Sequence record: DRR378314_135
Reading direction: 5' to 3' (one strand)
DNA: 20,000 bases
Shown: piece by piece, positions 1,638 through 20,000 of the stretch
Position numbering within the stretch: position 1 is the stretch's first letter
How the letters are laid out: the number at the start of each line of letters is the position of its first letter
Position numbers and translations under genes: made by a program
The notes under the pieces: generated by a model
The model's input: only the letters and a program-made list of their open reading frames with translations
The model's database searches: none
What the model was told of the DNA's origin: nothing

Positions 1638-1866
1638 GCTGTGCCTGATAGGGTTCGATTGCAGCGGTTGAAGATCTGATCCACGGGATCACGCCGATTT
1701 TCACGACCGCGCAGCCCAATGCTTTTCTCGTACCCGAATCCTTGTTAGGGTTCGCGTGATTTTAAAGCTTAGGATTTATCCATTGGAAACGGTATCTTGC
1801 CCACCGCCGTGGAACCGCTTTTGTTCGCTCAATCAGGTTTCGCCAGAACCGGAAGCAGAGCATCAG

Positions 1867-4643: not shown

Positions 4644-5659
4644 TGAAAATCGGAACTGCTGCGCTATGTCTGGCCGTCTTAGCTGTGACTGCTGCCAGTG
4701 CCTATTGGGGCTATGGGAAATATGAGCAAAAACAACTCCATTCCGCGCTTGTAGAGAAGATCCGCAGCGATCTGGTCTACATCGAAGGCGGGGACTTCGA
4801 GACAGGGAATTACAAGATTGATTTCCAGTTCCCCAGTGGCGCGCGACGCTTGGTTTCGATCGTGGAAGACATGCCGCTGCCATCGCGCCGCGTGACGCTG
4901 GAGAACTACTATCTCTCGGCCTATGAAACGAGCTACTCCGACTTCAACGTTTATCTGCGCGCGCAAGGCTATCCGGTTCTCGAACCTCAGGAGTACCGCC
5001 GCTACCTTCCGGATCACGCCGCCGCCCTATCGCTGGAGGAGGCATCCGCGTATTGCGCATGGCTGGGAGAACAGGTCGGGACAATCATGCGCCTGCCGAC
5101 AGAAGCCGAGTGGGAATTTGCCGCACGCAGTCGAGGGCAAAATCCGGCTTGGGCCACGGATGACGGGAATTTTCGGCCTGGCGAAAACCTTGCCTATCTG
5201 GTGACCGATGATCTGACCGCAGCAGACCGGGACCCGCCGATCGGAAGCTATCCTCCGAACCCACTGGGTTTGTACAATCTTGCCGACGGTCTCTACGAGT
5301 GGGTGTCGGACCGCGCCCCTTCGGATCCAGATGGTTCCGCAATAGGCAAAGGTGCGAGCAACTTCACATCCCGGTTCACCGAGGTCATTCCACGCCGCAT
5401 CGTTGTGGAGCGTCTGACTGACAAAGCTCGGGACGACCTGCTTCAGGTGCTTGCGCCGGAAGATCGGCAACGCCTGATGCGCCAGAAAGATCCGCTAAGC
5501 CCGTATCGCAGCCGGGTAACCGCCCGATGCGCCGCGTCGGAAACACGCGAACCTGCTCAGTCCGGTTTTGGAACGACACCAGGCCCGGTCCAATTCAACC
5601 CGCCGTTCTATGCCGAGGGCGAGCACCCTCCCTTGGTCACCGCGCCCGCCGGAGAATGA
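4643..5659 (+). CDS. FGE/SUMF1-fold protein with N-terminal signal or membrane anchor; putative T6SS immunity protein
   Basis: IEGGDF, RLPTEAEWEFAAR and PIGSYPPNPLGLYNLADGLYEWVSD are FGE-sulfatase domain motifs. Hydrophobic N-terminus (KIGTAALCLAVLAVTAASA). TGATG overlap with the upstream stop (alternative GTG at 4640). The catalytic RGGS..C....C segment is absent. Confidence 0.85.
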   Translation: MKIGTAALCLAVLAVTAASAYWGYGKYEQKQLHSALVEKIRSDLVYIEGGDFETGNYKIDFQFPSGARRLVSIVEDMPLPSRRVTLENYYLSAYETSYSDFNVYLRAQGYPVLEPQEYRRYLPDHAAALSLEEASAYCAWLGEQVGTIMRLPTEAEWEFAARSRGQNPAWATDDGNFRPGENLAYLVTDDLTAADRDPPIGSYPPNPLGLYNLADGLYEWVSDRAPSDPDGSAIGKGASNFTSRFTEVIPRRIVVERLTDKARDDLLQVLAPEDRQRLMRQKDPLSPYRSRVTARCAASETREPAQSGFGTTPGPVQFNPPFYAEGEHPPLVTAPAGE

Positions 5660-5811: not shown

Positions 5812-6900
5812 TTACTCTGCGCAGGCCCGAATTTTCTCAATGTCGGGGCCATTCGGGTTGCGGCCGAGGTTGAATGGTGCGGAGGCCGCGCGCCAGTTGG
5901 AGTAATCCGCAAGATATTCGAGCTGGCTCAGGTAGACTTTTGCCGAGGATGGGTTTTCACAAGCCACATTCTCGATCACCGCGTTGGCGGTTTCCTGAAT
6001 TTTTGCCAGCGCTTCGTCGTCCATACGCGTGATCTCGTTAACTTCGAGGAACTGCTTATAGGCATCATTCGCCCGGCGCTCGGTGAAGGCCAGCGACCAC
6101 AGCATCGTCGCGTCGGCGGCAATCTCCAGCTTTTCCTGAGCTTCCGGGCTCAGCGCATCCCAGGACGCCTTGTTGATCATCACGCCAAAAACAGATGCAG
6201 ACTGATGCCAACCAGGCGTTGCCCAGTAACCGGTCACCTGCTGGAACCCACCAGACCAGTCCACGTTTGGCGTGGAGAATTCCGCTCCGTCGATCACGCC
6301 GCGCTCCAGAGATTGGTAAATTTCACCACCAGCCATGGAGACCTGGCTGCCGCCAAGCTCGTTGAGAAGCCGGCCCTGCTCGAGACCCGACACCCGAAGA
6401 CGCTTGCCCTGCAGATCGTCGATCGAACGGATCGGTTCCTTGGTGTGAAAACCAGACTCGTTGTTGGTCACCGCGTAGGGAAGATAGACCATGCCGAACT
6501 TGCCATAGGTCTCGTTATAAATTTCCTTGCCACCCCACTGCTGAATCCAGTTCACGTAGTCGACTGCGTTGAACAAACTGGAGGTGGTGGCGAGCGGCGA
6601 AAAGGCCGGGTCACGGCCCGCCCAGTAGCCAGGCCAGTCTGCGCCAGCTTGCACGATCCCGCTCTCGACGGCACCGAAAACTTCGCCTGACGGCACCAGG
6701 CTGCCCCCTTCAAAGAACTCAATGCTGACTTCGTCGCCCGCGAGCTTGTTCGCAAGCTCGACGAAATGCTTGTCGAATTCGATCAGTTCGAGCGACGAAG
6801 GCCAGGTTGTGGTCATCTGCCAGCTTTGCTGCGCAGATGCCGCACCAGCGGCCATGGTCACGGCGAAGGTGGCCGAAGCCAGCGTCTTTCCAAGTGTCAT
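5812..6900 (-). CDS. dctP: TRAP substrate-binding protein (DctP, TakP/FcbT1-like), 362 aa
   Basis: Signal peptide MTLGKTLASATFAVTMAAGAASA, then WQMTTTWP, EVFGAVESG, GYWAG, DLQGKRLR, GEIYQSLERGVIDGAEF and PGWHQ. Start set at ATG 6900 behind AGGAGG, not at 7152. Confidence 0.93.
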   Translation of the reverse strand: MTLGKTLASATFAVTMAAGAASAQQSWQMTTTWPSSLELIEFDKHFVELANKLAGDEVSIEFFEGGSLVPSGEVFGAVESGIVQAGADWPGYWAGRDPAFSPLATTSSLFNAVDYVNWIQQWGGKEIYNETYGKFGMVYLPYAVTNNESGFHTKEPIRSIDDLQGKRLRVSGLEQGRLLNELGGSQVSMAGGEIYQSLERGVIDGAEFSTPNVDWSGGFQQVTGYWATPGWHQSASVFGVMINKASWDALSPEAQEKLEIAADATMLWSLAFTERRANDAYKQFLEVNEITRMDDEALAKIQETANAVIENVACENPSSAKVYLSQLEYLADYSNWRAASAPFNLGRNPNGPDIEKIRACAE

Positions 6901-6923
6901 AGAGATCTCCTCCTGTCTCATTT

Positions 6924-8249
6924 TCAGTTTGGTTTGTAGAGCGCTTCCGGCAACCAGGTGACGAGCTGCGGAAACAGCGCGATTGCAATAGCCATCATCA
7001 GGATCAGACCGATGAAGGGCAGAACGCCAATAATGATGTCGGAGGTGCGTACCTCCTTTGGTGCCAATGCACGCAGATAGAACAGCGCATACCCGAAGGG
7101 AGGCGAAAGGAAGGAGGTCTGCAACACGACAGCGGTCAGAACCACGAACCACAATTCGCTGACGCCCATTTCCCGCACGATAGGCAGGAAAATCGGGAAG
7201 GACAGCAGCACGATGCCAGTCCAGTCAAGGAACATGCCGAGGATGAAGATGATGAACATCATCACAGCAATCAGCATCCATGGCTCCATTTCGAGCGACC
7301 GCATCAACTCCTGTGCGGCACGCAGACCGCCCGTGATATTGAACACCCCCGTAAACGCGGTTGCCCCCACAACGATGAACAGGATCATCGCTGACGTGCG
7401 TGCGGTTTCATGCAGGGCGGAGCGGAAGGTGCCCCACTCAAAACGCCCCCGGAAAATCACAATCCCAAGCGCCAGCGCTGCGCCGATCGCCGATGCCTCT
7501 GTTGCGGTGGCAATCCCAGCAAGCATAGTGCCCAGGATTCCAAAAATCAGCACCAGCGGAGGCAATGCTTCGAGCACCAGCATCCGCAGCAATGTTCCGC
7601 GTGAGACCTTCTCATCAAGCGCCACAGAGGGAGCCAGATCGGGCCGGAACATCGCGACCAGTGCGACATAGCCCGCGTAGAGCAAACCAAGGATAATGCC
7701 CGGCCCCATCGAACCGGCGAATAGTTCGCCAACAGACAGCGATGAGTTCGACGCCATGAGGATCAGCATGATCGAGGGGGGGATCAGGATCCCCAGACAC
7801 CCGGACGCTGCGATCACCCCGGTGGTAAGGCGCTTGGAGTACCCGTATTGCAGCATCGGCTTGAGCGCCATTACCCCCATAACGGTGATCGAGGCACCGA
7901 TGATGCCAGTGGTTGCCGCCAGCAGGATCGAGATAAACACCACCGCGAGCCCCAACCCACCGGTAACACGCGACATCAGAAGGCGCAGTGTCTCAAACAT
8001 TCGATCCGTCACGCCTGAATCGGACAGGAACCGCGCCATCAGCACAAACAACGGAATCGCGATAAGGATGTAGTTATCGAGAACCTCGCCGTAGATACGG
8101 TTGATGACGATGCCCAGCACCATAGGCTTGCCCGCGATGATCGCACCAAGCACAGCAGTGCCGCCAAGAACAAAGGCTAGAGGGTGGCCCATGAAGAGGC
8201 CGGTCAGCAACAAGCCCGCCATAATTAGACCGATGATCTCACCCGACAT
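6924..8249 (-). CDS. dctM: TRAP transporter large permease (DctM, FcbT3-like), 441 aa
   Basis: LIAIPLFVLM, LAATTGIIGAS, GCLGILIPPS and LQTSFLSPPFGYALFYLR; polytopic membrane protein. Confidence 0.95.
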   Translation of the reverse strand: MSGEIIGLIMAGLLLTGLFMGHPLAFVLGGTAVLGAIIAGKPMVLGIVINRIYGEVLDNYILIAIPLFVLMARFLSDSGVTDRMFETLRLLMSRVTGGLGLAVVFISILLAATTGIIGASITVMGVMALKPMLQYGYSKRLTTGVIAASGCLGILIPPSIMLILMASNSSLSVGELFAGSMGPGIILGLLYAGYVALVAMFRPDLAPSVALDEKVSRGTLLRMLVLEALPPLVLIFGILGTMLAGIATATEASAIGAALALGIVIFRGRFEWGTFRSALHETARTSAMILFIVVGATAFTGVFNITGGLRAAQELMRSLEMEPWMLIAVMMFIIFILGMFLDWTGIVLLSFPIFLPIVREMGVSELWFVVLTAVVLQTSFLSPPFGYALFYLRALAPKEVRTSDIIIGVLPFIGLILMMAIAIALFPQLVTWLPEALYKPN

Positions 8250-8742
8250 GGTGCTGCTCCGATTTCTTGAGGATGAGCTTCAGGACCTCTGAAATGCCCT
8301 GAATGGCCAGAAGCACTGCAGCGATCGCCATGGCGATCTTGACCGGATAGACCGGGATTTGAATGGCACCATAAGTGGTCTCGTTCTGCGCATAGGAGCG
8401 CAGTGCGAACTCCCAACTTTTGCTTACAAAAATCCAGCAGAAGGGAAAAAAGAAAATCAGATAGCCAAGCACGTCAACAGCCCGACGCAACGGCGGAACC
8501 AGGTTTTCGGTGAGCAAATCGACACGGACATGCGCCTGATGACGCAACGCGTAGCCCCCAAGCATCACGAAGTAAAACCCGTAGAGCATCTTGGTAAGAT
8601 CGAACGCCCAAAGCGTCGGAGCATTGAAGCCGTACCGCATGATCACGTCGTAGATAATCATGCCTGCAAATATGATGGCAATAAAGGAGACCGCCTTGCC
8701 GACGACCTCGTTCAGCCCGTCAACGAGACGGATCAGAACCAT
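8239..8742 (-). CDS. dctQ: TRAP transporter small permease (DctQ, FcbT2-like), 167 aa
   Basis: YDVIMRYGFNAPTLWAFD and HVRVD motifs, four hydrophobic segments, GGGAGG RBS, overlaps the dctM start. Confidence 0.93.
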   Translation of the reverse strand: MVLIRLVDGLNEVVGKAVSFIAIIFAGMIIYDVIMRYGFNAPTLWAFDLTKMLYGFYFVMLGGYALRHQAHVRVDLLTENLVPPLRRAVDVLGYLIFFFPFCWIFVSKSWEFALRSYAQNETTYGAIQIPVYPVKIAMAIAAVLLAIQGISEVLKLILKKSEQHHVG

Positions 8743-8831
8743 TGTGATTTCCTCCCTGCAAAGGCACCTGCAAACCTGTCGCGAACCTTTTGGCGTAGAC
8801 TAGGCAGCGCACTCGCGTTTGACATGGAGAA

Positions 8832-8860
8832 ATCTGCAGACCATTACTGCAGATATGCAG
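8832..8860. promoter_or_regulatory. Candidate LysR operator in the divergent dctQ/lysR promoter region
   Basis: ATCTGCAG-N7-CTGCAGAT (8832-8854) interlocks with CTGCA-N4-TGCAG (8847-8860), which overlaps the lysR start codon. Confidence 0.5.
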
Positions 8861-9784
8861 AACAGCTTCGACTGGAATGACCTCAAGGTTTTTCTCACGC
8901 TACATCGCATGAAACGCATGACAGACGCAGGCAAGGTGCTTGGCGTCGATCAGACGACGATTGCCCGCCGTATCAAGGCACTGGAGGCATCGATCGGAAC
9001 ACATCTTTTTGTGCGCAGGGCGGACGGGTTTGAGCTGACGCAAGCCGGACACCGGATCCTGCCCTTCGCCCTTGACATCGAACAATCGGGGGAACAGCTG
9101 CACGAAGAGGTTTCAGGCCAAAATAAGCGCCTGTCGGGCCGGGTCCGCGTCGGTGCGCCTGACGGCCTGGGTACCTTTTTTGTGCCCTCGATTCTCACTC
9201 ATTTCCAACAGGATCACCCGGATGTCGACATCGAGGTCGTCGCCAGTTCGCGCGAGTTTCGCATTGCCGAACAGGAGGTGCATCTCGCGCTCTGCCTGTC
9301 ATTGCCCGAAAGTGGCCGCCTGTTGGCCCGCAAGCTTGCTGACTATCACCTGTATTTCTTCGGGTCGGCAGAATACATTGAGAAGCACGGCACACCTCAG
9401 GAACTGAGTGAGCTGCAGGGACACCGTCTCGTTGGCTATATCTCCGATATGCTATTCTCACCGGAGGTTCGTTTTCTGGAAGAACTCGGTTTGCGCGAAA
9501 TGGTGCGCTTTGCCTCAAGCTCCATGGCAGCACAGCGCGAAGCCATTCGCTCCGGGGCGGGTCTCGGAATCCTGCCCCGGTTCATGTCCCTGAACGATCC
9601 GAGCCTCGTGCCCGTCCTAACCGAGCGCTATCTTCTCAAACGTACAGTTTGGATTGTGAGCCATCAAAGCACCGAAGATCTGGCCCGCGTCCGCTCGGTC
9701 TCCGAATACCTCCAGCGCTCCGCCAGATCTCGACGCGGCGATCTGTTGCTGCCGGACGATCTTGGGCAACCCGGGCCGAGGTGA
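8855..9784 (+). CDS. LysR family transcriptional regulator, about 309 aa
   Basis: N-terminal HTH (WNDLKVFL...AGKVLGVDQTTIARRIKALEASIGTHLF..R), LSGRVRVGAP and a C-terminal substrate-binding domain. Divergent from dctQMP. Start taken at ATG 8855. Confidence 0.95.
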   Translation: MQNSFDWNDLKVFLTLHRMKRMTDAGKVLGVDQTTIARRIKALEASIGTHLFVRRADGFELTQAGHRILPFALDIEQSGEQLHEEVSGQNKRLSGRVRVGAPDGLGTFFVPSILTHFQQDHPDVDIEVVASSREFRIAEQEVHLALCLSLPESGRLLARKLADYHLYFFGSAEYIEKHGTPQELSELQGHRLVGYISDMLFSPEVRFLEELGLREMVRFASSSMAAQREAIRSGAGLGILPRFMSLNDPSLVPVLTERYLLKRTVWIVSHQSTEDLARVRSVSEYLQRSARSRRGDLLLPDDLGQPGPR

Positions 9785-9832
9785 CCAGCTGCTGCAGCGT
9801 GTTGGCCGACTACAAGCCACGCTGATTGAAGC

Positions 9833-9937
9833 TTTGGTGGCGTCAAATCCAGCGGCTATGGGCGCGAAGGCGGCACCGATGGATTGAAGAGCGACCTCAC
9901 GACGCACAACGTTTGATCCAGCGCCGAAATCGCCTGA
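9833..9937 (+). pseudogene. Aldehyde dehydrogenase C-terminal remnant
   Basis: Hand translation gives FGGVKSSGYGREGGTDGLKSDLTTHNV*SSAEIA*, colinear with the end of the intact ALDH at 11667-13097 (FGGVKASGQGREGGAEGLDSYLSVKNVWHSRSIT*). No start codon, one internal stop. Confidence 0.85.
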
Positions 9938-10014
9938 ATGGCCTTTCCACACAGATGTCGATCTTGGATTTATCATGCAGTACAATATGATAGATGGAAA
10001 CATACGGGCAGTTT

Positions 10015-10376
10015 GAAGGAGACTATCGCCGACAGCGGCAACGCACGACCCGCCTGGCCCGCCTGGCCATCGGGTTGCCGTCGAGGGTGGTCATCACTGC
10101 ACCTGCGTCCCCGGGTACGTTGAGCAGGATCGACGAGATCCTCCCACCATATTCCGCACCGTAGTATATACCGGCCAGCAGGATCAGCGCCGCCTCGGGC
10201 TGGAAACCCAAACCGTAGGCGATGGGCAGCAGGATCGCCACACCGTTGATGGGAGCAAGGCCCGGAAGTGAACCGATCAGCGTGCCCACAAAGCAGCCGA
10301 CCAGCACCAGCATGAGGTTGACCGGATCGAGGGCGACGGCAAAGCCTGTCGCGAGACCGGAAAACACCGCGTCCAT
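10015..10376 (-). pseudogene. tctA: TctA (TTT large permease) N-terminal remnant, frameshifted and truncated
   Basis: GTLIGSLPGLAPINGVAILLP...GAEYGGRISSILLNVPGDAGAVMTTLDGNPMAR, then a frame change near 10062 to GQAGRALPLSAIVSF, after which similarity ends. About 120 codons against about 500 for a full TctA. Confidence 0.9.
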
Positions 10377-10798
10377 CAGTTGGCCTCCGTTTCAAAGCGT
10401 TCGAGCAGGGCTTCGATCAACGCGCCCTCCGGCGGGTTAAGATCCATCAGGCTCACGCACAGCAGCCAGCCGAGAATACCGGCCGCAATGCCAAATGCCA
10501 GCGCACGCCAGCGCGGCGCACCCAGCATCCGCGCGAGGATGGTGTCGAAAATGGCGGTTGAGACAATGAAACCCAGTGGTTCGTAGAGGCGCCCGTAGGC
10601 GAGCAGCATGACAATTACGGCAGCTAGGTGGAACCATACCTTTTGGGTCAGCTCCAGGCTGTCGATGTCCGGCTTCCAAAGCACGCGCGCCAGACACAGG
10701 GTGGCGACAATGGACAGGATTTGGGGCCAGCTTTCGGGCCCGAGCGAGTCGTATTGGAACGGTGCCTGGATAACGGTGAACGCGATGATCGCGTATGC
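10376..10798 (-). pseudogene. tctB: TctB (TTT small permease), 5'-truncated
   Basis: The frame continues upstream of the called GTG as AYAIIAFTVIQAPFQYDSLGPESWPQILS...LYEPLGFIVST. No start codon precedes it. TGATG overlap with tctA. Confidence 0.8.
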
Positions 10799-10935
10799 GC
10801 AGCAATGCGGAATGGGGCATTGGATGCACCGTATCCCTTGTAGCCACCGTTCCTCTGCACGATTTCTAAGAACATGTCGCCCGCGTAGAGCCGGGAATAA
10901 ACTGGAAGAAAGTGCTCGCCTTGATCGACGCCGTA
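10798..10935 (-). pseudogene. C-terminal remnant of a QuiC1-type dehydroshikimate dehydratase / HPPD-like fusion protein
   Basis: YGVDQGEHFLPVYSRLYAGDMFLEIVQRNGGYKGYGASNAPFRIAA resembles the conserved C-terminus (FFEIVxRxGGYxGYGAxNAPxRxAA) of the sugar-phosphate-isomerase/HPPD fusion family. The rest of the gene is missing. Confidence 0.75.
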
Positions 10936-11002
10936 CCCTGGCGTCACACCAGCGAAATCCGCGGCCCTACCAACCCGCCCGCCCTCGCATGTGTACAGCA
11001 CA

Positions 11003-11036
11003 ACAAAACAGCACGCCCCGGTGCGGGACACGCTGT
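11003..11036 (-). terminator. Intrinsic terminator after nbaC
   Basis: Minus strand ACAGCGTGTCCCG-CAC-CGGGGCGTGCTGT-TTTGTTG: a stem with G-U pairs followed by a T-rich tail, about 20 nt after the nbaC stop. Confidence 0.65.
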
Positions 11037-11054
11037 CTGCCTTTTGAAGTCAAT

Positions 11055-11621
11055 TCAGAGCTGCACCCAGTCCTCTGGCGGCTTGCCCTTGCCGGGGTGA
11101 ACCTCGCCGCATGACTGGCAGGTGCGTGCCTCGATGTTGGCGTGGAATGCCTCGTAGATCTTGGGCAGCGCCGAGACGATGCCATCGGTACCTTCCAACG
11201 TGACCTCCTCACGGTGGACGAGCGCCTCGCAGTTGAAGCAGAACCATTCGAAGCCCTCGGTCATGCCAGGCTGGCGCGGCGCCTCGACGACGATACCGAT
11301 GGACCCCTCCTGCGGACGCTGCGGCGCGTGGCGCACATGCGGCGGCAGCATGAACACCTCGCCCTCACGCACCGGCACATCATAGATTTTGCCGCCGTCG
11401 GCGATCTTGATCATCATGTCGCCCTTCTGCTGAAAGAACCATTCCTCCACCGGGTCGTCATGGAAATCGCAGCGGGTGTTGGGGCCGCCGACCACCATGA
11501 CGATCATGCCGTCGCCGTCCTTGTGCAGCAGCTGGTTGCCAACCGGCGGCTTTAGCTTGTCGGCGTTCTCTGCCAGCCATTTCTGAAAGTTGAAGGGCTT
11601 CAGCTTGGGGTGATTGGACAT
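11055..11621 (-). CDS. nbaC: 3-hydroxyanthranilate 3,4-dioxygenase, 188 aa
   Basis: LKPPVGN, VVGGPNxRxDFH..PVEEWFFQQKG, HAPQRP and VVE motifs, plus the rubredoxin-like CFNC and CQSC pairs. GGAGG RBS. Confidence 0.96.
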   Translation of the reverse strand: MSNHPKLKPFNFQKWLAENADKLKPPVGNQLLHKDGDGMIVMVVGGPNTRCDFHDDPVEEWFFQQKGDMMIKIADGGKIYDVPVREGEVFMLPPHVRHAPQRPQEGSIGIVVEAPRQPGMTEGFEWFCFNCEALVHREEVTLEGTDGIVSALPKIYEAFHANIEARTCQSCGEVHPGKGKPPEDWVQL

Positions 11622-11666
11622 TTGTGACCTCCTTGGGACTGTAACTGTTGCCTTGCGTGCGGTGAG

Positions 11667-13097
11667 TCAGGTGATGGACCGGGAATGCCAGACATTCTTG
11701 ACTGACAGATAGCTGTCCAGGCCCTCGGCGCCGCCTTCGCGGCCCTGGCCGCTGGCCTTGACCCCACCAAAAGGGGTTTCCGGCAGCGAGGCCTCCAGCG
11801 TGTTGATCGACAGGTTGCCGACCTCGATCTCGTCAATCATCCGGTCGATGTAATCGGCGCGGTTGGTCATGCCATAGCCTGCCAGCCCATAAGGCACCGC
11901 GTTGGCGGCAGCGATGGCCGCATCCAGGTCCACCACCGGGTTCAGCACCGCAATCGGGCCAAAGGGTTCTTCCTGCATGATCTGTGCCTCAGGCGGCACG
12001 TTGGCCAGCACCGTCGGCTGGAAGAAATAGCCGCGGTCCCCCAGCCGCGCGCCGCCGGTCAGCAACTCAGCACCCTTGGCGACAGCATCCTCCACCAGCG
12101 CCGTCAGCACCGGGATACGGCGTTCGTTGGCAGTCGGCCCCATCTCGACGCCCGGTTCCATACCGTTGCCCACAACGGTGGCGGCGGCGCGTTTGGTGAA
12201 GCGGGTCTTGAATTCCTCAAAGATACTGTGATGCACAAAGAACCGTGTTGGCGAGGTGCAAACTTGGCCGGTGTTGCGCATCTTGCGGATAGCACCACTG
12301 AGCGCAGCCTTTTCCACATCCGCGTCCTCGCAGACGATGACCGGTGCGTGGCCGCCCAACTCCATCAGCGCGCGGGTGTCATGGCGCGCCGCCAGCGCCG
12401 TCAACTGGCGCCCTACTGCGGTGGAGCCAGTCAGCGCGACCAGCTTTACCGCCGGTTGCGGGATCAGGAATTCGGAGATCTCTGAGGGCACCCCGAACAC
12501 CAGGTTCAGCACCCCGGCTGGCAGACCCGCATCCTCGAATGCGCGCACGATATGCACCGCGCCACCGGGCGTTTCCTCGGCCGCCTTCAGGATGATCGAA
12601 CAGCCCGATGCTAGCGCCCCCGCGACCTTGCGCGCGGGTTGGCTCATCGGGAAGTTCCAGGGCGAGAACGCAGCCACCACCCCGATGGGATGATGATGAA
12701 CCGATAGCTTGGAGCCCGCTGCCGCCGGGATGACTCGGCCATAGGCGCGCATCGCCTCGCCCGCGTCCCATTCAAAGAACTCGGCACCACGGATCACTTC
12801 CAACCGGGCCTGCGCCAACGGCTTGCCATGCTCGGCAGTGATGGTCAGGGCGATCTCCTCTTGCCGATCGCGCATCAGCGCGGCGGCGCGCAGGATGATA
12901 TCGGCACGTTCCCGCGGCGCAGTCCGGCTCCAGATCGCCAGCCCTTTTTCGGCCGCCGCCAGTGCATCCCGCAGATCCGCGCGCCCGGCGCAGGGCAGTT
13001 GCCCCAATTCTTCTTCGGTCGCCGGGTTGACGACAGCGATGCTGCGCTCCGCCTTGCGCCAATGGCCATCGATAAAGAGGTTGAGATCGGGATACAT
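11667..13097 (-). CDS. NAD(P)-dependent aldehyde dehydrogenase, GabD/alpha-ketoglutaric semialdehyde dehydrogenase-like, 476 aa
   Basis: PWNFP, LTGSTAVG, MELGGHAP, RNTGQVCTSPTR (catalytic Cys), EEPFGP and PFGGVKASG. Start at ATG 13097 behind AGGAGG. Confidence 0.93.
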   Translation of the reverse strand: MYPDLNLFIDGHWRKAERSIAVVNPATEEELGQLPCAGRADLRDALAAAEKGLAIWSRTAPRERADIILRAAALMRDRQEEIALTITAEHGKPLAQARLEVIRGAEFFEWDAGEAMRAYGRVIPAAAGSKLSVHHHPIGVVAAFSPWNFPMSQPARKVAGALASGCSIILKAAEETPGGAVHIVRAFEDAGLPAGVLNLVFGVPSEISEFLIPQPAVKLVALTGSTAVGRQLTALAARHDTRALMELGGHAPVIVCEDADVEKAALSGAIRKMRNTGQVCTSPTRFFVHHSIFEEFKTRFTKRAAATVVGNGMEPGVEMGPTANERRIPVLTALVEDAVAKGAELLTGGARLGDRGYFFQPTVLANVPPEAQIMQEEPFGPIAVLNPVVDLDAAIAAANAVPYGLAGYGMTNRADYIDRMIDEIEVGNLSINTLEASLPETPFGGVKASGQGREGGAEGLDSYLSVKNVWHSRSIT

Positions 13098-13224
13098 ATG
13101 CCTGCGCCTCCTGCATTGAACGGCCCGATTAGGCGCAGGCCCGGCACACGCGTTCAACTGATATCCGGGAAAGCTGATATGCCGTTTGCTGATAGCAAGG
13201 CTGCAGACTCGCCGAAGAGATCCG

Positions 13225-13935
13225 CTAGGCCTGATCTTCTACCCGGTCAAAGAAGCGACGTGTAAAGCCCGCGTGTTCTTCCAGCAGACGCACCGCTTGC
13301 TCCTCGTCGCGTGCCAGAACCGCCTCCATCAGCTTGGTGTGGTGGGCAATGCCAAGGGCGGCGCGGCTATGGGCGATCAACTCCGGGCTGCCCAGAAACT
13401 TGTCGCGGTTGTCCCCCGTGAACATGCTGAAAAAATGCCGGTCCAGATGGTTGGAAATCTGCGCGTAGAACAGGTTCAGCCACTGCGAGCGCGACGCCGC
13501 CAGCAGCGCCCTGTGAAAGCCCCGGTGACGGTCCGACCACACCCACAGCTCATCCAGATCACTGGTCTCCGCCGGTTCGGTCGCTTTGGCCAGCAGGTGG
13601 TGGCTGGACAGGATCGCCGCCTCCCAGGCGTCATCGCCATGCGCAATCGCCTCGCGCAGCAGCGCGGTTTCGATCACCAGGCGACAGCCTTCCAGGTCCA
13701 TGAGTTCTGCCTGGGTCACCGCCGCGGCGCGGAAGCCGCGGTTGTTCTCCATCACCACGAATCGCTCGCTCTCCAACCGCCGCAGCGCCTCGCGCATCGG
13801 CGTCACGCCCAGGCCGCTTTCCTTGCCCAGCGCCGGGATCCGCAGCGGCGCCTCGGGTGGAATTTTCGCCTCAATCAACTGCTTGAGCAGGAATTGATAG
13901 GCCATTTCTGACTTTGACGACGCGGGTAAATCCAT
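13225..13935 (-). CDS. GntR family regulator with FCD domain, 236 aa
   Basis: Winged HTH (LRIPAL...GVTPMREALRRLESE...NRGF) and FCD motif HRGFHRALLAASRS...HHTKLMEAVLARD. Divergent from kynU. Confidence 0.93.
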   Translation of the reverse strand: MDLPASSKSEMAYQFLLKQLIEAKIPPEAPLRIPALGKESGLGVTPMREALRRLESERFVVMENNRGFRAAAVTQAELMDLEGCRLVIETALLREAIAHGDDAWEAAILSSHHLLAKATEPAETSDLDELWVWSDRHRGFHRALLAASRSQWLNLFYAQISNHLDRHFFSMFTGDNRDKFLGSPELIAHSRAALGIAHHTKLMEAVLARDEEQAVRLLEEHAGFTRRFFDRVEDQA

Positions 13936-13956
13936 TGATTGACCTTCAGAAATATA

Positions 13957-13987
13957 ATCGTATACGATAAGTCAAATCATATACGAT
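13957..13987. promoter_or_regulatory. Tandem GntR-type operators between gntR and kynU
   Basis: Perfect palindrome ATCGTATACGAT (13957-13968) and a one-mismatch copy ATCATATACGAT (13976-13987) in an AT-rich divergent spacer. Confidence 0.7.
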
Positions 13988-14042
13988 TGAAGTGTGCATA
14001 TTGGTTTTATCAGTTGCACACCCAGCCCGAGAAGGAAAGCCA

Positions 14043-15293
14043 ATGGCCCTTATCCCCACCCGCAGCACCGCCGAGGCTCTGGACAGCCAGGATCCGCTGG
14101 CGCACAAGCGTGACGAGTTTTTCGTCGAGGAAGGCACCATCTATCTGGACGGCAACTCGCTCGGCCCGGCACCCAAAGCGGTATTCGACAGCATCGACCG
14201 CACCATGCGCGAAGAATGGGCCAAGGGGCTGATCCGCAGCCACAACACCGCCGGCTGGTTCATGCTGACCGACACGCTGGGCAATCGCCTCGCCCGGCTG
14301 CTGGGTGCCAGCGAGGGCGAGATCGTGGTCTGCGACACCACCTCGCTCAATATCTACAAGACCCTGCACGCAGCACTTTCGATGCAGCCCGTCCGTCGCA
14401 AGATCGTGGCAGAGGGCAGCTCATTTCCGACCAATCTCTACATGGCGGAAGGTGTGCAATCGACGCTGGAGGGCGCCACCCTGGCCCTGGAAGGCCGCGA
14501 CGGCGACCGGATCGAGGATATGATCGACGCCGACACCGCGGTGGTGATGCTGAACCACGTGGACTACCGCTCCGGCGTGATCCGCGATGTGAAGGCGCTG
14601 ACCAAGCTGGCGCATGAACGCGGCGCGCTGGTAATGGTGGACATGTGCCATTCTGCCGGGGTGATCCCGGTCGACCTGCACGACCTGAACGTCGATTTCG
14701 CCGTCGGCTGCACCTACAAATACCTCAACGGCGGGCCGGGTTCGCCCGCCTATGCCTATGTAGCCAAGCGCCACCACGGCAAGTTCACCCAGCCGCTCTC
14801 CGGCTGGCACGGCCATGCTGCCCCCTTCAAGTTCGAGCAGAGCTACCGCAAGGGCGAGGGCGCCCGAGCGCTGCTGTGCGGCACCCAGCACACCCTGTCG
14901 ATGCGCGCGCTGCAGTCGGGGCTGGCGGTCTTTGATGATGTCGAGGTGGTCGACCTCTATGCCAAGGGCCGGGCGCTGTCAGACCTGTTCATCCAGCTGG
15001 TCGAGAGCTTTGCCGAAGACTTTGGCATTGGCTTTTACAGCCCCAAGGACGGCACGCTGCGCAACGGCCAGGTCTCGCTGACCCATACCGAGGGCGGCTA
15101 TGCCATCGTGCAGGCGCTGATTGCGCGTGGCGTGATCGGCGATTTCCGCCAGCCCAACGTGATGCGCTTTGGCTTCACGCCACTGTATCTGCGGTTTGCC
15201 GATGTCTGGGACGCGGCCAACCACCTCTACGAGGTGATGAAGACCGAGGAGTGGAAAGAGGACCGCTTCAACGTCGTCAACACGGTGACCTGA
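14043..15293 (+). CDS. kynU: Kynureninase (PLP-dependent, bacterial type, divergent active site), 416 aa
   Basis: IYLDGNSLG, DFAVGCTYKYLNGGPG (PLP lysine), QPLSGWxGH and GDFRxPxxxRFGFTPLY. Start at ATG 14043 behind GAAGGA. Confidence 0.93.
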   Translation: MALIPTRSTAEALDSQDPLAHKRDEFFVEEGTIYLDGNSLGPAPKAVFDSIDRTMREEWAKGLIRSHNTAGWFMLTDTLGNRLARLLGASEGEIVVCDTTSLNIYKTLHAALSMQPVRRKIVAEGSSFPTNLYMAEGVQSTLEGATLALEGRDGDRIEDMIDADTAVVMLNHVDYRSGVIRDVKALTKLAHERGALVMVDMCHSAGVIPVDLHDLNVDFAVGCTYKYLNGGPGSPAYAYVAKRHHGKFTQPLSGWHGHAAPFKFEQSYRKGEGARALLCGTQHTLSMRALQSGLAVFDDVEVVDLYAKGRALSDLFIQLVESFAEDFGIGFYSPKDGTLRNGQVSLTHTEGGYAIVQALIARGVIGDFRQPNVMRFGFTPLYLRFADVWDAANHLYEVMKTEEWKEDRFNVVNTVT

Positions 15294-15481
15294 CCGGTTG
15301 CCGCGCCCAGCGCGCGGCATTTGCCCCCATACCCTGATATCACGGGACCGCCTTGGCGGCGCCTCCCGTGATGCCCCCTGCCCTGCGCCTGAAGCTGCAC
15401 CCCAAGAATGCAGAAGGGTGCCCCTTAGCCACCCCGAGCTAGCAGAGGCCAATAATTTTTCAAACCCAACGGGAGGACCAC

Positions 15482-16429
15482 ATGAAACTCAACACCCTAC
15501 TGAAGACCGCTGTCTTTGCGGCTGCCGCCGCGCTCAGCCTGCCGCAGACGGCTGCCGCCTGGACGCCGGAAGAGCCCATCCTGCTGCGCATCGGTTTTGG
15601 AGCCGGCGGCGAGACGGACACCATGGGCCGCGTGCTGGCCGCCACCATTGAACGCCAGACCGGCTGGGACGTGGTGGTGGAAAACCGCCCCGGCGGCGGC
15701 GGCGTTGCGATGCTCAGCGCCCTGGTTGCAGAAGATCCCGACGGGCTGGTCCTGGGCATGGCGGTCAACATCCCACCGCTGATGGCGCTCAGCCAGCGCC
15801 CCGACTCGGTTCCTTTTACGCTGGACAGCTTTGACTACATCGGCACCGTCACCGTGGCAGAAACGGCCCTGATCGCCGGCGGTGAGGCGGCGTTCTCCTC
15901 GATCGGGGAACTGGTGGACTTTGCCCGTACGGAAGGCTCTGCCAAAATCGCTTGGGACGCGCCGGACGCAAAGGCAATCCTGCAGAAGATCGGCCAGCAG
16001 GAAGGCGTTAGCTTCCGCATGGTCAAGGCCGAGAGTGGCGCGGAAATGAACAAGCTGCTGCTGGGCGGCCAGGTCGATGCCGCCTTTGGCACCGGCGCCC
16101 ATCTGCCCTTCGTCGAAGAGGGCCAGATGAAGACCATCGCCAGCCTGTCGGACAAGCGGCTCAGCTCTGCACCCGACGTGCCGACGCTGATCGAGTCCGG
16201 CCATGAGTTCTTCATCGCGCCCTATTTCTATATCGCGGCCCCCGGTGGCCTGCCCGCCGAGGTGAAAACCGCGCTGGCTGATGCCATGGACAAGGCCGTG
16301 GCAGATGAAGCGGTGCAGACGGTTGTGCGGAACGCGGTCAGCGCCCCTGCGCTTAACCTCGGAGCCGAGGGCACCCGACAAATGATGCACGACTCGCTGG
16401 CACCCGTCGGTGCCCTGTTTGACCAGTAA
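15482..16429 (+). CDS. tctC: TTT substrate-binding protein (TctC/Bug family), 315 aa
   Basis: Signal peptide, IGFGAGGETDTMGR, VVENRPGGGG, LLGGQVD and PDVPTLIESG. GGAGG RBS. Confidence 0.93.
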   Translation: MKLNTLLKTAVFAAAAALSLPQTAAAWTPEEPILLRIGFGAGGETDTMGRVLAATIERQTGWDVVVENRPGGGGVAMLSALVAEDPDGLVLGMAVNIPPLMALSQRPDSVPFTLDSFDYIGTVTVAETALIAGGEAAFSSIGELVDFARTEGSAKIAWDAPDAKAILQKIGQQEGVSFRMVKAESGAEMNKLLLGGQVDAAFGTGAHLPFVEEGQMKTIASLSDKRLSSAPDVPTLIESGHEFFIAPYFYIAAPGGLPAEVKTALADAMDKAVADEAVQTVVRNAVSAPALNLGAEGTRQMMHDSLAPVGALFDQ

Positions 16430-16442
16430 ATGCCAGACCCGT

Positions 16443-16474
16443 CCTCGCGGCTGCAGCTTGCGCCGCGAGGTTTT
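16443..16474 (+). terminator. Intercistronic stem-loop between tctC and tctB
   Basis: CCTCGCGGC-N10-GCCGCGAGG followed by TTTT. May stabilise tctC mRNA or act as a partial terminator. Confidence 0.55.
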
Positions 16475-16490
16475 GCGACAGGAGAAAACC

Positions 16491-16913
16491 ATGACGCTGC
16501 ACCGCCTAACGGGTGTCTTTTTTGTCATTTTTGCCGTGGCGATGATCTGGGGCGTCATCCCGGCGCAGACTGAATCCGTCTACCCCGATGGCTCGATCCC
16601 ACCCGAGGTTCTACCCATGTTCTATACCGCGATGATTGGCCTGTTCGGCGCTGCGCTGGCCTGCCAGCGCGCGGAAGCAACCGCGCTGGACCTGCGCCAG
16701 GGGGCAAAGACCGCCGGTTTTTTCCTGCTCGCACTGGTCGGGGTGCTGGCGATGCAGCACTTCGGTTTTCTGCTGGCCGCTCCGGCGCTGGCATTGGTTC
16801 TCTTGTGGCTGGTCGGCGAGCGCCGGCCGCTATGGCTGGCCCTGGGCGGTCTTGGCGGGCCATTGCTGATCTGGACCGTTTTCGAAGTCCTGCTGGGACG
16901 TCTCTTGCCCTGA
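16491..16913 (+). CDS. tctB: TTT small permease (TctB family), 140 aa
   Basis: Four hydrophobic segments, FGFL motif and C-terminal FEVLLGRLLP. AGGAG RBS before ATG 16491. Lies between tctC and tctA. Confidence 0.88.
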   Translation: MTLHRLTGVFFVIFAVAMIWGVIPAQTESVYPDGSIPPEVLPMFYTAMIGLFGAALACQRAEATALDLRQGAKTAGFFLLALVGVLAMQHFGFLLAAPALALVLLWLVGERRPLWLALGGLGGPLLIWTVFEVLLGRLLP

Positions 16914-16925
16914 GGAGGGGGTGCG

Positions 16926-18431
16926 ATGGTGCCGTTTGATGTAATTCTGGCAGGCTTGGCGGGGACATTCACCCCGGTGGTGCTGCTTTATGTGCTGGCC
17001 GGAGTGGTGATCGGCCAGTTTGTCGGGGCGGTTCCCGGCATTGGGCCGGTCATGGCGATTGCGATTGCCATTCCTTTCACCTTTGTCATGGACCCGCTCG
17101 TGGGGATTTCCTTCCTGGTCGGCATCGGCAAGGGCGGGCTTGTTGGCGGCGCGGTGCCTGCGGTGCTGATCAACACCCCCGGCACGCCCGATGCTGCGGC
17201 AACCGCATTCGACGGCTTTCCGCTGGCACGGCAGGGCAAGCCGATGAAGGCGATGCGCATGGCGCTCTATTCCTCCGTCACTGGCGACACCGCCAGCGAT
17301 ATCATCCTGATTACCGTCTCCGCGCCGCTGGCCATCGTGGCGCTGAAACTGGGACCGGTGGAGATCCTGTTCCTGCTGCTCTTTGCCTTTACCGTGATCG
17401 TCTGCCTCGTCGGCGGCACCATCGCCCGCGGCGGTGTTGCGCTGTTCCTCGGGCTGCTGCTTGCCACCATCGGGCTGGATCCCGAATACGCCACGCCACG
17501 ACTGATATTTGGCCAGACCGAGCTTTATGACGGCATTCCGCTGGAAGCCATCGCCCTTGGTATCCTCGTGCTGCCGGAAGTGCTGCGCCGCCTGGCACAG
17601 GGCAGCGGTCTGTCGCGCCCCGCGATCGAGATCCCGGCAGACCAACCTGCCGCCGACCGCCGCATCAGCTGGCGCGAGTACTGGTCCTGCCGCTTTGCGA
17701 TGCTGCGCGGTGCTTCGATCGGCACCGTGCTGGGGGCACTGCCCGGCATCGGCTCCACCGCGGCGGCCTTCATCGCCTATGCCGCCACTCGCGCAAGCGC
17801 CAAGGATCCCGAAAGCTTCGGCAAGGGCAACATTCAGGGCATTGCGGCGGCGGAATCGGCGAATTCCGCCGTGGTCGGCGCCAATCTGATCCCGCTGCTA
17901 ACGCTGGGCATTCCCGGAAGCGTCGGCGCCGCCCTGCTGATCGGCGCCTTCAAGATCCATGGCATCCAGCCGGGGCCACTGCTGTTCGACCAGCAGGCAG
18001 AGCTGATTTACGGGCTGTTCGGGGCGATGATCGCGGCCAACTTCATGAACTTCTGGGTCGGTCAGGCTGGCATGCGGCTGTGGGCCACGGTGGTCAAAGC
18101 GCCGGAACTGGTAATCTTTACCCTCGCATTGCTGCTGTGCATCACCGGGGTCTACTTGGGCGCGGGCGGCATGTTCGGTCTTTATACCATGCTGGCCTGT
18201 ACGTTGTTGGGACTGTTGCTGAGCGCGCTGGGAATCTCGGTGATCGTGTTCATCATCGCTTTCTTTCTGGGCAGCCGGTTCGAGACCACCTTGTCGCAAA
18301 GCTACAGCCTCACCGGCGGATCGCTGCAGGAGCTGGCGAACTACCCCGTGGCGCTGGCCCTTCTGGTGGTGAACCTGGCCTTCATCGCGCTTTTCACCCG
18401 CAATCGGCATCGCCGCGCGCTGCCCGACTGA
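16926..18431 (+). CDS. tctA: TTT large permease (TctA family), 501 aa
   Basis: VGAVPGIG, INTPGTP..AATAFDGFPLARQG, GALPGIG, AAAESANSA, IPLLTLGIPGS and GIQPGP motifs. Confidence 0.96.
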   Translation: MVPFDVILAGLAGTFTPVVLLYVLAGVVIGQFVGAVPGIGPVMAIAIAIPFTFVMDPLVGISFLVGIGKGGLVGGAVPAVLINTPGTPDAAATAFDGFPLARQGKPMKAMRMALYSSVTGDTASDIILITVSAPLAIVALKLGPVEILFLLLFAFTVIVCLVGGTIARGGVALFLGLLLATIGLDPEYATPRLIFGQTELYDGIPLEAIALGILVLPEVLRRLAQGSGLSRPAIEIPADQPAADRRISWREYWSCRFAMLRGASIGTVLGALPGIGSTAAAFIAYAATRASAKDPESFGKGNIQGIAAAESANSAVVGANLIPLLTLGIPGSVGAALLIGAFKIHGIQPGPLLFDQQAELIYGLFGAMIAANFMNFWVGQAGMRLWATVVKAPELVIFTLALLLCITGVYLGAGGMFGLYTMLACTLLGLLLSALGISVIVFIIAFFLGSRFETTLSQSYSLTGGSLQELANYPVALALLVVNLAFIALFTRNRHRRALPD

Positions 18432-18444
18432 GCGCCGCCCCGAC

Positions 18445-18476
18445 GGGGCGCTGGCATACCGCCCAGCGCCCCTCTT
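18445..18476 (+). terminator. Probable terminator after tctA
   Basis: GGGGCGCTGG-N8-CCAGCGCCCC followed by TCTT. Confidence 0.55.
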
Positions 18477-18493
18477 GGTATATCATTAATTAA

Positions 18494-19555
<1,062 letters not shown>

Positions 19556-19577
19556 CCGTGCACCGCCCCGCCGTTAC

Positions 19578-19614
19578 GGCAGGGGCGGATGCCCCGTGCG
19601 CCTCCGCCCCTGCC
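19578..19614 (+). other. Intercistronic stem-loop between dctP and dctQ
   Basis: GGCAGGGGCGGA...TCCGCCCCTGCC forms a 12-bp stem with no U-tract. Confidence 0.5.
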
Positions 19615-19661
19615 CCTGCCCCTGCCCTGATATTCCTCACCCAACCCATGGTTTCACCCTG

Positions 19662-20000
19662 ATGCTTCAGACTTTTTCCCGGCGGTGGGCGCGGGCGGAA
19701 CTGGCCTGTGCCGCCGCCCTCGCCGCTGCGATCACCGCGCTGATCCTGCTGAACGTACTCACCCGCAGCATTGGCTTTGCGCTCTACTGGGTCGATGAGC
19801 TTGCGGTCTATGCCATGATCTGGATGACGCTGCTGGCGGCCTCGGCGACGGTCCACCACAAGGACGCGGTTGCCGTCACCATCACCACCGACGCCCTGCC
19901 GCAGGATGCCGCGCGGGTCCTGTCACGCCTCGTCGACGCGGTGATTTTTGCGCTGGCGCTGCTGACAGCCTGGTTCTGCTGGCGCTGGTTCCTGCCGCTG
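19662..20000 (+). CDS. dctQ: TRAP small permease (DctQ), runs off the right edge
   Basis: Not in the ORF track because it has no stop in the window. Hand translation MLQTFSRRWARAELACAAALAAAITALILLNVLTRSIGFALYWVDELAVYAMIWMTLLAAS... contains the DctQ motif W.DEL..Y..IW. Confidence 0.9.
   Translation, partial: MLQTFSRRWARAELACAAALAAAITALILLNVLTRSIGFALYWVDELAVYAMIWMTLLAASATVHHKDAVAVTITTDALPQDAARVLSRLVDAVIFALALLTAWFCWRWFLPL

Follow-up and report, generated by a model that had tools for sequence, protein, structure and literature searches.

Divergent genes around a shared control region

The 20,000-nucleotide stretch of DNA analysed here, from sequence record DRR378314_135 and called the window below, carries a divergent gene cluster that includes a kynureninase paralog (gene kynU*, protein KynU*). 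On one side of a short control region lie genes for a GntR-type regulator (gntR), an aldehyde dehydrogenase (ALDH) and a 3-hydroxyanthranilate 3,4-dioxygenase (nbaC). On the other side, kynU* is followed by the three genes of a tripartite tricarboxylate transporter (TTT), tctC, tctB and tctA. Gene identities were assigned by Pfam and NCBIfam profile scores on the open reading frames (ORFs) of the window. All seven genes, with tandem operators between the two arms, stand where the original prediction had put them:

11055-11621, minus strand: nbaC, 3-hydroxyanthranilate 3,4-dioxygenase, 188 residues (PF06052, 154 bits)
11667-13157, minus strand: NAD(P)-dependent ALDH of the alpha-ketoglutaric/succinic semialdehyde dehydrogenase (KGSADH/SSADH) type (PF00171, 497 bits)
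13225-13935, minus strand: gntR, FCD-type (FadR-like) GntR regulator, 236 residues (PF00392, 36.2 bits; PF07729, 60.7 bits)
13939-13968, plus strand: sigma-70-like promoter TTGACC-18-TACGAT facing kynU, the only promoter-like site in 9500-19000
13957-13968, palindromic: operator 1, the 12-mer ATCGTATACGAT, in the gntR-kynU spacer
13976-13987, palindromic: operator 2, the 12-mer ATCATATACGAT, 19 bp from operator 1
14043-15293, plus strand: kynU*, kynureninase paralog, 416 residues (TIGR01814, 301.5 bits, cut-off 246.4)
15482-16429, plus strand: tctC, TTT periplasmic binding protein, 315 residues with an N-terminal signal-like segment (PF03401, 87.9 bits)
16410-16913, plus strand: tctB, small TTT membrane subunit (PF07331, 46.8 bits)
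16926-18431, plus strand: tctA, large TTT membrane subunit, 501 residues (PF01970, 420.9 bits)

NbaC passes both equivalog models for its function (NF009763, 247.2 bits against a cut-off of 220; TIGR03037, 217.8 bits against 145.95). The ALDH falls below all NCBIfam equivalog cut-offs, reaching 279 bits vs the 693 needed for TIGR03216 (2-hydroxymuconic semialdehyde dehydrogenase); its nearest solved relatives are 9zh8 (482 bits) and the A. brasilense alpha-ketoglutaric semialdehyde dehydrogenase 5x5t (478 bits), and a near-identical plasmid record places its start at about 13097. The GntR protein combines an N-terminal winged helix with a C-terminal FCD domain and resembles CsiR, with a score (115 bits) under the cut-off. 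KynU* covers positions 1-400 of the TIGR01814 model and also matches KYNU_C (PF22580, 106.8 bits). An alternative kynU* start at GTG 13992 was rejected, since ATG 14043 is preceded by a conserved ribosome-binding site, GAGAAGGAAAG. The TTT is complete: TctC, TctB and TctA all score above their Pfam cut-offs and are encoded by adjacent open frames in the order C-B-A, with a tctB start at about 16491 in the near-identical plasmid record. The Prokaryotic Genome Annotation Pipeline (PGAP) names each gene, generically only. As had been claimed, the kynA, kynB and kmo families are absent from the scanned window ORFs.

The two arms share a control region of 107 bp. Gaps of 67 and 45 bp separate gntR, ALDH and nbaC, which probably form one operon facing kynU* across the operators. 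These operators read TCGTATACGA, a GntR-type palindrome with a GT..AC core; GT-Nx-AC is the operator consensus of the FadR/FCD subfamily of GntR regulators. With up to two mismatches allowed, the whole window yields just these two sites, against 0.23 expected by chance, and at least two matches arose in 5 of 200 shuffles. For the corresponding locus of the nearest genome (G001, 96% identical over the cluster), none of 200 shuffles reached two. The promoter facing kynU overlaps the tandem operators. When the spacers of the window, G001, a second related genome (G089) and the metagenome locus L176 are aligned, conservation extends to both operators, to the TTGAC box and to the ribosome-binding site of ATG 14043; L176 keeps the operators though its KynU is just 82% identical.

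A second spacer, of 188 bp, separates kynU* from tctC and holds two GC-rich hairpins on the plus strand (15299-15319 and 15339-15372; fold z = -1.85, no U-tract), both of which also occur in G001 and G089. No promoter-like site was found in this spacer. We infer co-transcription of kynU* and tctC across it, as we do the effector of GntR considered below. Among four sequencing runs compared with the locus, reads from the two metatranscriptomes reach no more than ~40 bases, in a conserved part of the kynureninase gene, and the run X1 is probably DNA.

A second kynureninase and the transporter inherited with it

KynU* aligns over its full length with the Pseudomonas fluorescens kynureninase 1qz9 (422 bits, ~57% identity) and scores 135 bits against human KYNU. 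The pyridoxal phosphate (PLP)-binding lysine motif of the bacterial enzyme (CTYKYLNGG, Lys227 in 1qz9) aligns identically with GCTYKYLNGGPGS of KynU*. The difference lies at a specificity residue: by alignment, His67 of KynU* occupies the position of P. fluorescens Trp64 and human His102 (LIRSHNTAGW vs LIRSW64NSAGW). Gly-Thr is retained at the position of P. fluorescens residues 281-282 and human Ser332-Asn333. In one study, Trp102 and Thr333 are described as strictly conserved in bacterial kynurenine-preferring kynureninases and the pair His102/Asn333 as typical of hydroxykynurenine-preferring enzymes, with the qualification that these two residues do not suffice to set either preference and are not strictly required for it (PMC11329768). 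KynU* carries neither combination in full: its His departs from the Trp and Thr of the bacterial type, and its Thr from the His and Asn of the eukaryote type.

This substitution is rare. Across 110 kynureninase loci (L014-L123), of which 30 come from a family sample of one genome per genus and 80 are the matches listed from an all-species scan, the specificity residue is Trp in 107, His in two and Met in one. The two with His belong to this cluster, as it occurs in G001 and G089. An all-species scan with an alignment of the His- and Gln-bearing enzymes returned, among the matches listed, only Trp-type enzymes at no more than 57% identity, which served solely as a control set. Among the best 120 database clusters, 91 have Trp, 15 His, 13 Gln and one Met. 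In a quick maximum-likelihood tree, KynU* belongs to a clade of 35 sequences (16 His, 14 Gln, 4 Trp and 1 Met) with a Shimodaira-Hasegawa-like approximate likelihood ratio test (SH-aLRT) support of 100. The stem of this clade measures 0.34; the clade arises within Trp-type enzymes from other Alphaproteobacteria, at a large distance from the kynureninases resident in roseobacters.

One such resident is found in G001, where a canonical kynA-kynU pair with Trp at the specificity site (LIKAWNTADW) lies on another contig, which corrects the earlier picture of a kynU without kynA. Because its clade lies far from the resident enzymes, the tree indicates that KynU* is a second copy acquired horizontally from outside and not a local duplication. 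The Gln-type sister clade (P0015-P0032; loci L177 and L178) derives from marine metagenome-assembled genomes, assigned by source to Paracoccaceae and Porticoccaceae, and a few of its members carry His, Met or Trp; the gntR-kynU spacer in the Gln-clade loci is without ATCGTATACGAT operators.

When metagenomes were scanned with a degenerate nucleotide pattern built on the non-Trp motif, three loci emerged, two of them short, and in all three a gntR ortholog is divergent from kynU. In the Gln-type locus L178, nbaC and gntR together face kynU. In the His-type locus L176, ALDH and gntR face kynU, and a universal-stress-like gene stands between kynU and tctC-tctB-tctA. The inserted ORF (L176:1617-2617, ~280 residues) has an N-terminus that is Usp-like by eye, and L176 is the most distant His-type locus.

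The window, G001, G089, 24 plasmid records and L176 all have kynU*, tctC, tctB and tctA in this order, so that the cluster is conserved in other genomes, a check that the original prediction had proposed. In L176 the linkage is retained with a TctC that is 74% identical. A family sample of 401 genomes, one per genus, holds TctC at 92% identity or more only in G001 and G089 (the next match is at 46%), and the His-type KynU likewise only there. Among 5.8 billion proteins, TctC relatives of at least 70% identity form only five clusters (93, 89, 77, 74 and 70-71%), and the next match at no more than 51%. The sources of these five include Phaeobacter gallaeciensis, P. italicus and Falsihalocynthiibacter and mirror those of the His-type KynU. 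TctCBA has thus been inherited together with the His-type KynU in all readable loci.

By fold, TctC belongs to the TctC/Bug family. Its nearest solved relatives are 25hk (88 bits) and BugD (2f5x, 81 bits), with Bug27 (2qpq) at 61 bits, and it contains the conserved GFGAGGxTD loop. To our knowledge, few TTT transporters have an assigned ligand. The earlier statement that no characterised TTT ligand of this kind was known needs revision, since a ligand from the same pathway has been described: the TTT proteins Bug27 and Bug69 are reported to bind quinolinate (PMC11452294). More distant TctC relatives (39-46% identity, ten loci) belong to other TctCBA systems.

One of these lies in a second, independent neighbourhood of TTT and kynurenine genes. 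In the genome G084 (L191:2270-9800), a TctCBA with 44% identity in TctC and 61% in TctA immediately precedes kynA, an alpha/beta hydrolase gene and a Trp-type kynU, all in one orientation, and a sulfatase gene flanks it at the far end. An alpha/beta hydrolase adjoins kynA/kynU in both G084 and G109. In two genera (L161:3020-3931 and L191:3510-4358, in the latter beside kynA as well), the hydrolase beside kynU is of the Abhydrolase_3/BD-FAE type, and it may be the kynurenine formamidase of this family.

An older gene set, its carriers and the rest of the pathway

The original prediction had ended the cluster at 18431. This boundary proved too narrow, for the unit runs on into dctP and dctQ of a tripartite ATP-independent periplasmic (TRAP) transporter and past the window end, and this transporter is conserved beside nbaC in relatives:

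18575-19555, plus strand: dctP, TRAP binding protein, ortholog of Ruegeria pomeroyi SPO1773 (PF03480, 192 bits)
19464-20000, plus strand: dctQ, TRAP small membrane subunit, cut by the window end (PF04290)

Beyond dctQ in G001, G089 and a Tritonibacter scottomollicae plasmid follow dctM and genes for a LysR regulator, an aspartate-dehydrogenase-like (AspDH-like) protein, a dihydrodipicolinate-synthase-like (DHDPS-like) protein and a drug/metabolite (DMT) transporter. In G001 the last four occupy L125:13593-17556, ~3.5-7.5 kb past the window end. The AspDH-like gene scores 340 bits with NF009828, and the DHDPS-family gene is below all equivalog cut-offs.

Most of these genes recur around nbaC in relatives. 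The dioxygenase gene is present in 47 of the 401 sampled genomes; 20 loci were taken and one of 1.9 kb was dropped, leaving 19. Query proteins came from the window, except those for the LysR, AspDH-like and DHDPS-like genes, which came from G001. Several loci are cut by contig ends, and the following counts near nbaC are lower bounds:

dctP ortholog, directly beside nbaC: 66-75% identity, 12 of 19 loci
DHDPS-like gene: 62-82% identity, 12 of 19 loci
LysR regulator: 43-71% identity, 12 of 19 loci
ALDH: 63-82% identity, 8 of 19 loci
AspDH-like gene: 55-64% identity, 7 of 19 loci
kynureninase (three Trp type, one Met type): 43-45% identity, 4 of 19 loci

TctC, TctA and this GntR were found near nbaC in none of the 19 relatives' loci. 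Because the partners of nbaC recur there without them, gene content indicates that gntR-kynU*-tctCBA is an insertion into an older roseobacter nbaC gene set, made in the Tritonibacter/Phaeobacter lineage. The LysR/AspDH-like/DHDPS-like/DMT set also accompanies nbaC in L157-L174, across roseobacter genera, with no gene for aminocarboxymuconate semialdehyde decarboxylase (ACMSD) alongside. The LysR/AspDH-like/DHDPS-like set with nbaC looks like an undescribed route for the breakdown of 3-hydroxyanthranilate (3-HAA).

The TRAP transporter of this older set has a close structural relative. DctP of the window matches the Protein Data Bank (PDB) entries 4paf, 4pai and 4pbh at 473.7 bits, and its predicted model (mean pLDDT 77.6) superposes on 4paf with a Z score of 42.0 and a root-mean-square deviation of 1.5 A over 301 residues at 70% identity. 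The title of 4paf names R. pomeroyi SPO1773. We take the SPO1773 entries to hold 3,4-dihydroxybenzoate, 3-hydroxybenzoate and benzoate. The neighbouring gene SPO1774 is listed as a 3-hydroxyanthranilate 3,4-dioxygenase (PMC3390766). By analogy, the ligand of the TRAP system in the cluster is likely to be a substituted benzoate such as 3-HAA.

The cluster, carried by marine Tritonibacter and Phaeobacter, is accessory, mobile and mostly plasmid-borne DNA. Of 38 matching plasmid records, 24 cover at least 80% of the 8.5-kb query: one conjugative 241-kb plasmid of T. scottomollicae from a kelp gametophyte (96.2% identity) and 23 Phaeobacter plasmids, including those of P. inhibens, P. gallaeciensis, P. 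piscinae and P. porticola, at 85-86%. Its accessory and mobile character follows because G379, a second genome of the same genus, has no nbaC or TctC match at the thresholds used and because the left flanks differ among replicons. The kynureninase of G379 is only a distant canonical-type match (E = 1.6e-102). The window resembles the T. scottomollicae plasmid and G001 from 10996, just past the nbaC stop, through to its end; left of the island, this plasmid and G001 carry IS3, IS30 and IS110 transposases. Falsihalocynthiibacter is a chromosomal case, with both TctC and KynU on a contig of up to 3,145,865 bases. The carriers come from aquaculture and from animal and algal surfaces (clam and fish larvae, barnacle and kelp).

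The window itself has gene remnants to the left of nbaC (9785-11055): the last 28 codons of an ALDH (plus strand, about 9830-9913), an N-terminal piece of a tctA (minus strand, 10023-10376) and a piece of a tctB (minus strand, 10376-10684). That these are a duplicate of the intact tctBA was rejected, the tctA piece being only 34% identical to TctA of the window. Further left, a second TRAP system (dctQ-dctM-dctP, minus strand, 5812-8742) is divergent from a LysR regulator gene (8819-9784), and the end of another dctM (1-825) is followed by a short-chain dehydrogenase gene up to 1591. The replicon stretch is rich in carboxylate uptake genes. Between these systems, on the plus strand at 1756-5659, genes for a DUF4123 protein, a 615-residue protein without Pfam match and a protein with an FGE-sulfatase domain stand in a row. 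Proteins with DUF4123 act as chaperones for effectors of type VI secretion.

The rest of the pathway was sought by genome-wide searches on G001 and G089. In both, nadA, nadB and nadC lie side by side on the chromosome. Their nadB genes score 446 and 451 bits, just below the cut-off of 452.75, yet stand between nadA and nadC. No kynurenine 3-monooxygenase (KMO) was found in G001 among the six FAD_binding_3 proteins that cover most of the domain, out of 19 family matches. These six are PobA, a PRK08132-type oxidoreductase, a 3-hydroxybenzoate-6-hydroxylase-like protein, two UbiH/F proteins and a PhzS-like protein, and KMO entries align with no more than a 100-residue piece (69 bits) in the G001 set. 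For kynB, TIGR03035 gave only a 21-bit match in G001. As for ACMSD, no Amidohydro_2 gene occurs in the window or the G001 island, and the sole strong PF04909 match in G001 resembles 4dlf, with no match to ACMSD entries. The wider genome search that had been suggested to check the prediction thus recovered kynA and the three nad genes in G001, with no kmo among the six FAD_binding_3 genes and no more than that marginal kynB match.

The prediction had left the choice between NAD precursor supply and catabolism open. NAD supply is unlikely as the main purpose because nadA-nadB-nadC is present in G001 and G089, and the company that nbaC keeps, namely the ALDH, AspDH-like and DHDPS-like genes, points to catabolism. 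For one of these there is a eukaryotic precedent: a 2026 preprint assigns human ASPDH the role of 2-aminomuconate reductase of the kynurenine pathway (bioRxiv 10.64898/2026.06.05.730449). By analogy, an aspartate-dehydrogenase homolog may act after ring opening here as well. Imported hydroxykynurenine is the simplest substrate for the cluster because no KMO was found among the six FAD_binding_3 proteins of the nearest genome. The predicted import of a kynurenine derivative is partly supported: kynU* is a diverged second copy whose specificity residue has changed, it shares its operator region with nbaC, and TctCBA is inherited with it. On the other side, the boundary was drawn too narrowly, and the NAD branch is an improbable main role.

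Proposed pathway, alternatives and known systems

We propose that TctCBA imports 3-hydroxykynurenine and the TRAP system 3-HAA, both for catabolism, a reading for which we see the chances as about evenly balanced and in which we infer the ligands of both transporters. It builds on gene identities and their order, the conservation of the operators, the residue change in KynU*, its co-inheritance with the TTT and the gene content of the nearest genome, all of which are observed. In the periplasm, TctC would capture an amino acid of the kynurenine type, with 3-hydroxy-L-kynurenine as the likeliest candidate, and TctBA would carry it into the cell. KynU*, with Trp replaced by His, would cleave 3-hydroxykynurenine to 3-HAA and alanine. 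NbaC would then open the ring of 3-HAA to give 2-amino-3-carboxymuconate semialdehyde (ACMS). The ALDH, and probably the AspDH-like and DHDPS-like enzymes, would process the carbon onward without ACMSD, and part of the ACMS may close spontaneously to quinolinate, which would reach NadC. The TRAP system would take up free 3-HAA, or a close hydroxybenzoate, directly. GntR, bound to the tandem operators, would repress both gntR-ALDH-nbaC and kynU*-tctCBA, and binding of a pathway compound to GntR would lift the repression. The island would then consist of two layers, an older roseobacter set for 3-HAA (nbaC, the KGSADH-like ALDH, dctPQM and the LysR, AspDH-like, DHDPS-like and DMT transporter genes) and the added gntR-kynU*-tctCBA.

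Several points weigh against this proposal, and some of them speak for other explanations. The absence results come from the neighbour genomes G001 and G089 and not from the window's own genome, and KMO was sought only among the six FAD_binding_3 proteins of G001. The residue at the position of human Asn333, which hydrogen-bonds the 3-hydroxyl in the human enzyme, is still Thr in KynU*. According to PMC11329768, an engineered kynureninase that keeps His102/Asn333 has high kynurenine activity, so that His102 is compatible with that substrate. Kynureninases with Trp and Thr stand beside nbaC in three other genera (L160, L161 and L166), and the link to nbaC therefore needs no change to His. All three of these enzyme-related points would suit an added module for L-kynurenine, or kynurenines broadly, in which TctCBA imports kynurenine, KynU* converts it to anthranilate and NbaC serves only the 3-HAA that enters through the TRAP system. 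The identity of KynU* to the kynurenine-preferring P. fluorescens enzyme and the related TctCBA beside kynA and a Trp-type kynU in G084 add to this case. We nevertheless hold it unlikely. The nearest genome already has its Trp-type kynA-kynU pair, and Trp is near-invariant elsewhere (107 of 110, counting the matches listed), so that its clade-wide loss suggests a different aromatic ring. The nbaC gene, moreover, lies in an operon sharing the GntR operators, and anthranilate is not a substrate of NbaC.

Other points against import of 3-hydroxykynurenine concern the connection between kynU* and the transporter. The 188 bp and two stable hairpins between kynU* and tctC could split operons, an extra gene separates kynU from tctC in L176, and no copy of the operator was found upstream of tctC or dctP in the window or the G001 locus. 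Distant TctC relatives (39-51% identity) occur in sulfatase contexts, including two annotated loci, and the island is flanked by IS (insertion sequence) elements and gene remnants. TctCBA might then be a neighbour that carries an unrelated carboxylate and co-travels with kynU* only because both lie on one mobile segment. This we consider distinctly unlikely, given that strand and order are the same in every His-type locus read, that close TctC relatives exist only where a His-type KynU does, the chromosomal Falsihalocynthiibacter included, that the spacer has no promoter-like site, and that the link was kept in L176 through divergence to 74-82% protein identity. Salvage of NAD precursors as the main role, by which 3-hydroxykynurenine or 3-HAA would pass through ACMS and spontaneous quinolinate formation to NadC, appears very improbable: nadC is present, no ACMSD was found in G001 to divert ACMS, an AspDH-like gene lies nearby and Bug27 and Bug69 show that TTT proteins can serve NAD metabolism (PMC11452294), but nadA and nadB with nadC on the chromosomes of G001 and G089 allow de novo synthesis from aspartate, two high-capacity transporters and the ALDH and DHDPS-like genes conserved with nbaC fit catabolism better, and the trait is accessory and was not found in G379.

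If the import of 3-hydroxykynurenine by TctCBA is borne out, a kynurenine-type ligand would add a new class to the TTT transporters, and the genetic context makes it directly testable. The His/Gln clade amounts to a natural experiment on the two residues that engineers use to switch kynureninase specificity. More tentatively, and with some doubt on our part, no dedicated bacterial system for scavenging 3-hydroxykynurenine of eukaryotic origin may have preceded this cluster, which would join a kynurenine-type TTT ligand, a hitherto unrecognised His/Gln kynureninase subfamily specialised on hydroxykynurenine and an ACMSD-free route for ACMS. As part of that tentative reading, the ACMSD-free route, with its AspDH-like reductase, DHDPS-like protein and KGSADH-like ALDH, would be a bacterial counterpart of the animal ASPDH step, and nbaC in the company of AspDH-like, DHDPS-like and ALDH genes without ACMSD may hide a new way of 3-HAA degradation. 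In the literature searched, subscription journals and supplements excepted, we found neither the cluster nor a kynurenine-type ligand for a TTT nor the His/Gln clade of kynureninases described. Eukaryotes form both 3-hydroxykynurenine and 3-HAA from tryptophan, and both compounds are redox-active. Because the substrates are eukaryotic and the carriers come from animal and algal surfaces, the cluster may be a trait for host association, spread by conjugative plasmids.

Set against known systems, the enzyme stands between two types. KynU* shares with the P. fluorescens KynU its ~57% identity, the PLP-lysine motif and Gly-Thr 281-282, and differs from it in having His for Trp64. Kynurenine-preferring bacterial kynureninases sit with kynA/kynB, whereas KynU* sits as a second copy with nbaC, gntR and a TTT. 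Human KYNU (3e9k/2hzp) has the same His at position 102, which faces the hydroxykynurenine ring according to PMC11329768, but it matches KynU* with only 135 bits and has Asn333 where KynU* has Thr.

Among transporters, the Bordetella proteins Bug27 and Bug69 (quinolinate) and BugD (aspartate) belong to the same TctC/Bug fold family and bind small carboxylates (PMC11452294). Similarity of the window TctC to these proteins is low, however, and it is genetically linked to a kynureninase and nbaC, not to nadC/NadQ. R. pomeroyi SPO1773, beside SPO1774 (nbaC), is the counterpart of the window DctP (70% identical), with the difference that in the window gntR-kynU*-tctCBA stands between dctP and nbaC.

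For the pathway as a whole, the classical route for 3-HAA and 2-nitrobenzoate (NbaC, the ACMSD NbaD, the 2-aminomuconate semialdehyde dehydrogenase NbaE and a deaminase) shares NbaC with the cluster, where an ALDH gene follows nbaC. Unlike that route, the cluster is without ACMSD, none having been found in G001 either, and its ALDH is KGSADH/SSADH-like and not of the hydroxymuconic-semialdehyde type; AspDH-like and DHDPS-like genes stand in place of the classical enzymes. The bacterial route from tryptophan to quinolinate and NAD (tryptophan 2,3-dioxygenase, kynurenine formamidase, KMO, kynureninase and 3-hydroxyanthranilate dioxygenase) has a kynureninase and a dioxygenase in common with the kynU*-nbaC pair and differs from it by KMO, of which none was found among the six FAD_binding_3 proteins of G001.

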